Part shown: piece after piece, positions 18,796 through 19,013 of the stretch
Layout of the letters: every line of letters starts with the position of its first letter
Position numbering within the stretch: position 1 is the first letter of the stretch
IMG/VR virus record: IMGVR_UViG_2645727821_000011
DNA from: a virus
Lineage: Duplodnaviria; Heunggongvirae; Uroviricota; Caudoviricetes
Strand: one strand, 5' to 3'
Length of the DNA stretch: 50,870 bases
Translations under genes and position numbers: made by a program
Notes under the pieces: generated by a model
What the model saw: only the letters and a program-made list of their open reading frames with translations
Database searches by the model: none
What the model was told of the DNA's origin: nothing

Positions 18796-18822
18796 AAAAA
18801 AAACGCCCACCCGAAGATGGGC
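18796..18822 (-). terminator. intrinsic terminator (GCCCATC-TTCG-GGTGGGC then T8)
   Basis: GC-rich hairpin followed by 8 T on the - strand. Confidence 0.55.
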
Positions 18823-18983
18823 AAACTGGAAGCTCGTAACGCACTTCGGAGTTGCCACTTAGGCGCATGGTCAACCTGGCAACTCGGTGGTTTGTCTGGG
18901 AGGACTAGGCCCAGCCATGCTTACCGCCGCGCCTGTCGCGGCTAACAGCTAAATCGCTCTATAAATCACGATTCATTGAGGCG

Positions 18984-19013
18984 ATATTACACTAATAAAT
19001 TTATTAGAGCAAT
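18984..19013. promoter_or_regulatory. two overlapping divergent C1 operator-like sites (ATTGCTCTAATAAATTT on -, ATTACACTAATAAATTT on +) with a - strand promoter -35 TTGCTC / -10 TAATAT
   Basis: 17/17 consensus match on - strand; 17-bp spacer. Confidence 0.55.

Follow-up and report, generated by a model that had tools for sequence, protein, structure and literature searches.

A putative non-DicF allele of the DicF-type leader cassette at the start of the C1-controlled ban operon of a P1-type phage-plasmid

The IMG/VR record IMGVR_UViG_2645727821_000011 (Caudoviricetes) comprises 50,870 nucleotides (nt), all of which are referred to here as the window. Directly downstream of the dmt gene, at positions 18796–19013, it carries a promoter overlapped by operators of the phage repressor C1 and, about 180 nt further on, an intrinsic terminator. 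The transcript delimited by these signals, and the noncoding RNA that follows it, are the subject of this report. In the segment 19030..18330 the window has 99.9% identity with phage JL22 and 98.7% with P1 (AF234172); RCS47 lies within the same range (98.7–99.9%), and hundreds of P1-type plasmids also match. Based on this similarity, the window is assigned to a P1-type phage-plasmid, as another P1-type isolate. All features of the transcript unit are encoded on the minus strand, and coordinates are read on that strand. They are as follows.

19013..18997, minus strand: C1 operator Op72a (Obana), ATTGCTCTAATAAATTT, 17 of 17 positions identical to the 17-bp asymmetric consensus; annotated in AF234172 as protein_bind 'Obana' at the same position
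18986..19002, plus strand: C1 operator Op72b (Obanb), ATTACACTAATAAATTT, 15 of 17 positions (2 mismatches); annotated in AF234172 and in P7
18984..19012, minus strand: promoter P1ban, with -35 TTGCTC at 19012..19007, a 17-nt spacer and -10 TAATAT at 18989..18984
18998..19029, minus strand: predicted weaker promoter P2ban, with -35 ATGACG at 19029..19024 and -10 TAAATT at 19003..18998; transferred from AF234172, weak fit to the consensus
19006..19004, minus strand: stop codon of dmt, inside the P1ban spacer and the operator; open reading frame (ORF) 19004..21268, 754 amino acids
18849..18942, minus strand: module A, a conserved structured leader of three hairpins and a pseudoknot, defined by homology, nhmmer and compensatory changes
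18942..18926, minus strand: module A, hairpin 1
18920..18915, minus strand: module A, pseudoknot strand GCAUGG, pairing with CCAUGC (18870..18865) in the loop of hairpin 3
18914..18896, minus strand: module A, hairpin 2, loop CCUAGUCCU
18885..18878 and 18856..18849, minus strand: module A, hairpin 3, in which GAGUUGCC pairs with GGCAACUC
18824..18848, minus strand: P1-type variable stretch CGAAGUGCGUUACGAGCUUCCAGUU, a candidate small-RNA seed, mostly unpaired in the minimum-free-energy fold
18796..18823, minus strand: intrinsic terminator found by a terminator scan, stem UGCCCAUC-UUCG-GGUGGGCG (18823..18804) followed by U8 (18803..18796)
18889..18788 (approximate transfer), minus strand: 'dicF-like region', misc_feature 68791..68892 of AF234172

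The control region at 18984..19013 corresponds, by sequence identity to the annotated reference, to the known P1ban/Op72ab region of P1 and is not new. The original prediction had described a perfect C1 operator over a -35 TTGCTC with a well-spaced -10 TAATAT, together with a second operator-like site on the plus strand; both agree with the published annotation, in which the hexamers of the 'sigma 70 promoter P1ban' coincide exactly with those found here. Op72b is inverted relative to Op72a and overlaps it by 6 bp, which gives a bivalent operator. The -35 box of P1ban falls inside Op72a, and the operator covers the -35 box and the spacer. A generic promoter scan did not return P1ban, because TTGCTC fits only three of the six positions of TTGACA. 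Operators, arrangement, hexamers and position are identical to the start of the C1/Bof-controlled ban operon of P1, and no difference was found. The promoter sits at the 3' end of dmt and is directed toward the tRNA genes (tRNA-Asn and tRNA-Thr follow on this strand) and ban. In AF234172 Obanab (formerly Op72ab) is annotated as 'controls expression of ban', and in the P7 record the operator is said to regulate the tRNA genes too. According to the published P1 annotation, C1, together with Bof, binds and represses at Op72ab. With up to three mismatches, nine matches to the C1 operator occur in the window against 0.22 expected from shuffled sequences, an enrichment of about 40-fold above chance, and none of 100 shuffles reached nine. 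The further operator-like sites, with 1–3 mismatches, are at 3175..3191, 5267..5283/5316..5332, 8939..8955, 22519..22535, 36720..36736 and 38385..38401, and are presumably other known C1-controlled operators of P1. The genes of the ban operon were dispensable for plaque formation in a CRISPR interference (CRISPRi) screen (PMC10695390).

From the position of P1ban, transcription is predicted to start near 18977, and the end of the U-run lies 182 nt from this point, in agreement with the claim of a strong minus-strand terminator about 180 nt downstream. The terminator hairpin, closed by a C(UUCG)G tetraloop, has a predicted free energy of -12.8 kcal/mol, and the whole 182-nt RNA folds only slightly better than shuffled sequences (z = -1.9). 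It had also been claimed that no convincing ORF lies between promoter and terminator, and this holds: the minus-strand ORFs of 27–41 codons differ in frame and C-terminus between P1 and P7, and none is conserved. ORFs of 27–54 codons do occur on both strands, and JL22 and SJ46 carry annotated hypothetical proteins here. That the region encodes a small protein is nevertheless barely credible, given these discordant frames, ORFs that run across the terminator into an RNA conserved in unrelated phages, and the compensatory nature of the helix variation described below.

The original prediction had offered two readings, an unannotated small RNA, or a terminator that ends the hrdC-dmt operon while the promoter reads through to the tRNAs. 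The first is correct in that no RNA gene is annotated, but the P1 reference already flags a 'dicF-like region' at this place. As to the second, the terminator is on the same strand as dmt, 180 nt behind it, and can therefore end dmt transcripts as well. Read-through to the tRNAs is required by the annotation of the ban operon, whereas a near-ideal terminator 182 nt after the predicted start would also have to release a short RNA, so that a small RNA and read-through are not mutually exclusive.

The relationship of this RNA to DicF was examined through module A. In a sensitive BLAST search, positions ~18941..18847 have 75–79% identity (~77%) to a segment present in many lambdoid phages, and a homologue occurs in 4407 of 5426 complete E. 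coli genomes (about 80%). In E. coli K-12 it lies between ydfC and dicB (locus L127 ~1495-1597; nhmmer E value of the module A profile 3e-36), directly upstream of DicF, which has its own Rfam match in the same locus (L127 1622-1673, 76.7 bits). The helices of module A were compared in 72 distinct sequences from 157 copies. The stem of hairpin 2 exists in four forms, CUGGG/CCCAG, CGGGG/CCCCG, CUGGGG/CUCCAG and CCAGGUG/CACCUG; hairpin 3 changes from GCC/GGC to GUC/GAC and from UUG/CAA to UCG/CAG; and the pseudoknot changes from GCAUGG/CCAUGC to GUAUGG/CCAUAC. When the partners of hairpin 3 were shuffled as a control, the result was 6 of 1000. The loop of hairpin 2 (18901..18909) retains a pyrimidine motif, UCCUC, UCCUU or CUCCUU, though the stem changes fully from one lineage to another. 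The motif is similar to an anti-Shine-Dalgarno sequence and could itself be a pairing or binding site. Module A has no match in Rfam.

In all 155 copies of module A with enough flanking sequence, a hairpin and T-run follow hairpin 3 at a distance of 34–77 nt (34 nt to the U-run in P1). When the segments that separate module A from the U-run were clustered by sequence, nine unrelated groups emerged, of which the DicF type accounts for 97 copies, the P1 type for 48 and all others for 10. Small-RNA cassettes would be expected to look like this, with a scaffold that is conserved and a 3' hairpin and seed that can be exchanged. Since this segment differs between phage lineages, P1 holds another 'allele' than DicF. 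We considered the RNA from 18977 to 18796 as a copy of DicF and rejected it, no match to the covariance model RF00039 being found there at E <= 10. This 52-nt model has a membership threshold of 48 bits, and the K-12 and mEp460 loci score 76.7 bits. What remains in P1 is about 15 nt resembling the DicF 5' end, built into the terminator stem. Thus, the homology of P1 is with the leader upstream of dicF and not with DicF itself; put differently, P1 shares what maturation cuts away from the DicF precursor and lacks the DicF core.

The two operons can be compared directly. Like the ydfABC-dicF-dicB operon of Qin, that of P1 is a repressor-controlled early phage operon with a homologous leader of ~100 nt (~77%), then a hairpin and U-run, and a further structured RNA downstream. 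The P1 operon differs in being without the 52-nt DicF core and in that pairing with ftsZ is not supported, by a test in which the DicF control was itself weak; moreover the cassette begins 35 nt after the transcription start in P1 but 1.3 kb into the operon for DicF. DicF is a proven trans-acting RNA, made either by early Rho-independent termination with an RNase E cut on the 5' side or by an RNase III route from a long transcript (PMC9438474). In the predicted fold of the K-12 RNA the module A sequence GGCGGUAAGUAUGG pairs with the 3' half of DicF, a duplex that would be a plausible RNase III substrate; the dicF leader is not described in the papers that mapped RNase III sites. In sum, the comparison of loci identifies the P1 RNA as a probable non-DicF allele of a DicF-type leader/small-RNA cassette. 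What is new here is that the P1 'dicF-like region' is not DicF, promoter and operator being already known.

A conserved, pseudoknotted fold immediately before a terminator also brings to mind an attenuator that senses a ligand or factor, like a riboswitch, and toggles the terminator; in P1, CCGAAG (18849..18844) could pair with the CUUCGG of the terminator loop. The stretch is missing from the lambdoid copies. Because terminator and spacer, in nine unrelated types, are neither conserved nor covary with module A, there is no conserved alternative pairing, and Rfam returned nothing for module A. We regard this possibility as very improbable.

The reading that we favour, and hold to be moderately probable, is that of a DicF-type cassette: transcripts that terminate would give a small RNA derived from the leader, and those that read through would cover the rest of the ban operon. 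In the lysogen C1, helped by Bof, would occupy the operator and keep P1ban silent. When C1 is lost, RNA polymerase would start near 18977, and the first ~130 nt would fold into module A. About 30 nt later the polymerase would meet the terminator, where most transcripts would end as a primary RNA of ~182 nt. By analogy with DicF, this RNA would probably be trimmed to ~55–60 nt, namely the stretch 18848..18824 with the hairpin and U8, which would be built like a base-pairing small RNA of the Hfq type. The smaller share of polymerases would read through into a tmRNA-like RNA (transfer-messenger RNA-like; module B, described below), tRNA-Asn, tRNA-Thr, tciABC, a third tRNA and ban. The target of the P1 RNA most likely differs from that of DicF.

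Several observations weigh against this proposal. No covariance-model match to DicF (RF00039) was found in 18700..19030 even at E <= 10. Duplexes of the P1 RNA with the ftsZ leader, scored by RNAduplex against shuffled sequences, gave z values of +0.4 to +1.1, although the DicF control itself reached only -0.9. The covariation in module A stems from few independent lineages, so that structural support for it is real but modest; the partner-shuffle control of the pseudoknot, with four variants only, gave 514 of 1000 and is not significant. The leader RNA is not mentioned in the P1 transcriptome paper or the CRISPRi papers. In phage D6 the hairpin is conserved together with module B where module A is absent, and its primary role could lie with module B. 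Finally, so strong a terminator, set against the need to supply ban with polymerases, leaves room for antitermination by module A.

This last point leads to a further proposal, that module A is a processive antiterminator RNA which, by analogy with the put RNAs of phage HK022, stays on its own polymerase and lets it pass the near and later terminators; such an activity would explain ban expression 2.7 kb away. Module A always lies just upstream of an intrinsic terminator (155 of 155), in operons with distal genes that need expression. The variable terminator sequence and the spacing of 34–77 nt are more easily explained by a factor that works on the polymerase than by one specific alternative pairing, no N-like gene lies between the repressor gene and dicB in the early-left operons of the Qin type, and passive read-through of so strong a terminator as that of P1 would not be easy. 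The likeness to put is positional only: both are structured RNAs encoded in cis close to where an early operon begins, with terminators downstream that have to be passed and no obvious protein antiterminator. The two differ in sequence and helix number, since put RNA has two stem-loops and module A three hairpins and a pseudoknot. BLAST and the module A profile on HK022 24–33 kb gave no similarity (best nhmmer E value 0.65); this interval is assumed to include putL and putR, the put sites not being annotated in the record. Furthermore, DicF arises by termination at its own terminator, which shows that termination is not abolished, and in D6 the hairpin is present without module A. We consider put-like antitermination improbable.

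The locus of D6 bears more directly on a second alternative. Promoter, C1 operator and module A are all absent there, and an identical hairpin is kept directly before module B; for this reason the terminator hairpin may not belong solely to the 182-nt transcript. In place of the three missing elements D6 has unrelated sequence (L240 1100-1230). In P1 relatives of the D6 type the long hairpin is of another kind, CAAGAAAGAAGCCGACU../..AGUCGGCUUCUUUCUUG, and an operator of the C1 type is absent, while the GCCCAUCUUCGGGUGGGC hairpin and a U6 run are retained ahead of module B. One may thus suppose that the leader is purely cis-acting and gives rise to no trans-acting small RNA: hairpin and U-run would end late hrdC-dmt transcripts and mark or protect the 5' boundary of module B, and module A would serve the processing or the stability of a polycistronic noncoding precursor containing the tmRNA-like RNA and the tRNAs. 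Besides D6, this is suggested by the terminator on the dmt strand 180 nt past the dmt stop, by the presence in other phages of another hairpin at the same position before GUUUUCG, and by the noncoding, modular character of the entire 650 nt from the promoter to tRNA-Asn. On the other hand, the equivalent 3' segment in lambdoid prophages is DicF, which acts in trans (PMC9438474), module A is conserved while the segment that follows is hypervariable, as is typical of a scaffold with an exchangeable seed, and a U8 tail after an unpaired stretch is the standard design of Hfq-type small RNAs. A purely cis-acting leader is accordingly rated as rather unlikely, and the DicF-type cassette remains our preferred explanation.

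The RNA that follows the terminator, module B, has the features listed below.

18617..18793, minus strand: module B, tmRNA-like RNA, beginning 3 nt past the U-run and sharing the hairpin as a boundary
18793..18746, minus strand: 5' domain, GGGUUUUCG..GCGAC UUUGCGG..UUUAGAAACUGACCA, nearly invariant
GCA 18734 to UAA 18704..18702, minus strand: tag frame ANDDLMMVAA-stop, without a start codon
18688..18683/18671..18666 and 18677..18674/18657..18654, minus strand: pseudoknot a
18651..18648/18638..18635 and 18644..18639/18622..18617, minus strand: pseudoknot b

In 334 records of enterobacterial phages from unrelated groups, intergenic DNA that bears no annotation matches the segment 18792..18600 (for example L004 1490-1665, L005 1491-1660 and L006 1496-1690). 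The groups include P1-like phages, Drexlerviridae (T1-like), Gamaleyavirus and other N4-like phages, and Ackermannviridae (Vi01, Serratia phage Kevin). The 5' domain has the general form GUUUUCG..GG(A/U)U.GCGAC UUUGCGG..UUUAGAAACUGACCA, which recalls the GGAUUCGAC...UUUGCGA of tmRNA. A search of Rfam returned a weak match to tmRNA_permuted at 18808..18702 (26.1 bits, E value 0.0012 in a small search) and another weak one to beta_tmRNA; the gathering score of RF04321 (cut-off 47) was reached neither by P1, at 26.1 bits, nor by the homologues, at 27–33. The match rests on the sequence UAAAU GCA AAC GAU GAU CUG AUG AUG GUA GCG GCC UAA. In an IMG/VR pattern scan (at least 120 contigs), the 10-codon frame AN(D/E)x..(A/V)A plus stop was present in 125 of 125 viral copies among the matches listed. 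The tag occurs as 30 DNA variants that encode 18 peptides, always of 10 codons, with eight variable sites at codon position 3, six at position 1 and four at position 2. As a control, three chance matches to the pattern in bacterial genomes were without the tag frame. In bacterial chromosomes module B is rare, with 5 true copies in 185,579 species genomes, all of them Enterobacterales or P1-like contigs.

As in helix 5 of tmRNA, the stop codon lies in a hairpin loop, and two H-type pseudoknots follow. The pseudoknotted model was written by hand, RNAalifold having given weak nested helices only. In an alignment of 44 sequences its 27 pairs are paired in 90.1% of cells, compared with 32–44% when the partners were slid, 15 of the 27 show double changes, and none of 500 shuffles reached the observed values. 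The likeness to tmRNA (SsrA, including the two-piece permuted forms) thus consists of the resume context UAAAU-GCA-AAC-GAU, a 10-codon tag AN(D/E)x...(A/V)A without a start codon, and a stop codon in a helix-5-like hairpin loop with pseudoknots after it. Module B differs in having two pseudoknots and no PK1, in its length of ~180 nt as opposed to ~360, and in being carried by phages rather than on host chromosomes.

The most conspicuous difference concerns the tRNA-like domain. None was found for module B: an acceptor stem with G3-U70, a T-arm and a 3' CCA end were all missing, and ARAGORN at default settings reported nothing at module B. Several candidates were considered and set aside. At thresholds of 80% and 60% ARAGORN recognised the resume consensus and the tag, but combined them with tRNA domains that were implausible and inconsistent from phage to phage; in P1 it drew on the CGGUAAG of module A and on an arm, without CCA, ahead of tRNA-Asn, an arrangement that is impossible in D6 and in phages without module A. 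Beside module B, ARAGORN also called two 'tRNA-Cys(ACA)' genes of abnormal form, 79 and 90 nt long (L004 1673-1751 in PD38 and L003 1281-1370 in Kevin). They are not homologous to one another, and were rejected as a tRNA part since neither has homologues in other loci. The T-arm-like hairpins within the flanking long hairpins are not universal, being missing in P1, SG01 and Vi01. In Cronobacter phage SG01 the next gene begins right after the second pseudoknot, and therefore nothing can follow module B there. Only one candidate for a tRNA domain is left within module B, a helix NAGUUUU/GAAACUG with an ACCA behind it that is invariant but internal and lies 11 nt ahead of the resume codon. This helix was not accepted as an acceptor stem, for it is conserved but barely covaries, its ACCA is internal and it has G3-C70 in place of G3-U70; the helix could equally be a recognition element for RNase P.

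A conserved promoter close to consensus, TTGACA-N17-TAGATT, occurs ~7 nt before CAGAUAGUUUU in 15 of 57 representatives, all in T1-like phages. At L049, L107, L042, L251 and others it lies ~45 nt upstream of module B, immediately before CAGAUAGUUUUCG, and since it is directly upstream, module B would be a primary transcript in these phages, where tRNA-Arg(UCU) and tRNA-Met follow. A search of the literature library found no phage tmRNA-like RNA and none of the six commonest tags. From its sequence, module B is apparently an undescribed RNA derived from tmRNA, and we refrain from calling it a tmRNA. We put forward, as a tentative and possible rather than probable extension, that the terminated transcript is the first unit of a C1-controlled polycistronic operon of noncoding RNAs, and that its second unit is this undescribed, tmRNA-derived phage RNA with a 10-codon tag under selection at the protein level. 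If so, the hairpin of the transcript would double as the 5' boundary of module B.

Other structured elements were noted in the vicinity. Long hairpins of the form CAACAGGUAAGAGCAUU..insert..AAUGCUCUUUCCGUUGUG occur in the same islands; that of P1 pairs 18612..18595 with 18553..18536 on the minus strand. Their conserved arms, CAACAGGUAAG(A/G)GC..insert..GC(U/C)CUUUCC(U/G)GUUG, flank module B and other RNAs (for example in L059, L062 and L049), and some inserts carry hairpins like a D-arm or a T-arm (GGGUUCGAAUCCC). They are not in Rfam, and may be processing stems or modules resembling Y RNA or tRNA. Upstream of tciA, at 17402..17283 on the minus strand, there is a sub-threshold match to STnc100 (RF02076; 39 bits, cut-off 47). 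A similar element lies directly after DicF in Qin and mEp460 (L127, L128 1671-1880; 34–40 bits in K-12) and another after module B in T1-like phages (GGUGAAUGCG...CACCGG..). Such elements look like a further module of these phage RNA islands. The third tRNA, at 16474..16549 on the minus strand, was called tRNA-Met(CAU) by ARAGORN. The gene table of the P1 CRISPRi study places trnI between tciC and ban (PMC10695390). The third tRNA is presumably trnI and would then be a tRNA-Ile2 of the lysidine type, for which tRNA-Met would be a common miscall.

As regards P1 itself, the promoter belongs to textbook biology and little changes there. The correction concerns the 'dicF-like region', which is another allele of a modular cassette made up of a conserved leader and an exchangeable hairpin and seed. 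A practical question is also raised, namely how polymerase passes a near-ideal terminator for the expression of ban. As the cassette is found in about 80% of complete E. coli genomes, it offers a concrete route to new small RNAs of prophages, and it allows one to ask whether the leader serves as a processing signal or as an antiterminator. If the tag of module B is translated, phages would redirect or re-label ribosome rescue during infection by means of a non-canonical tRNA-like part or one provided in trans. Module B, if functional, would then give phages a widespread means of acting on ribosome rescue and protein tagging, and this would be the larger prize.

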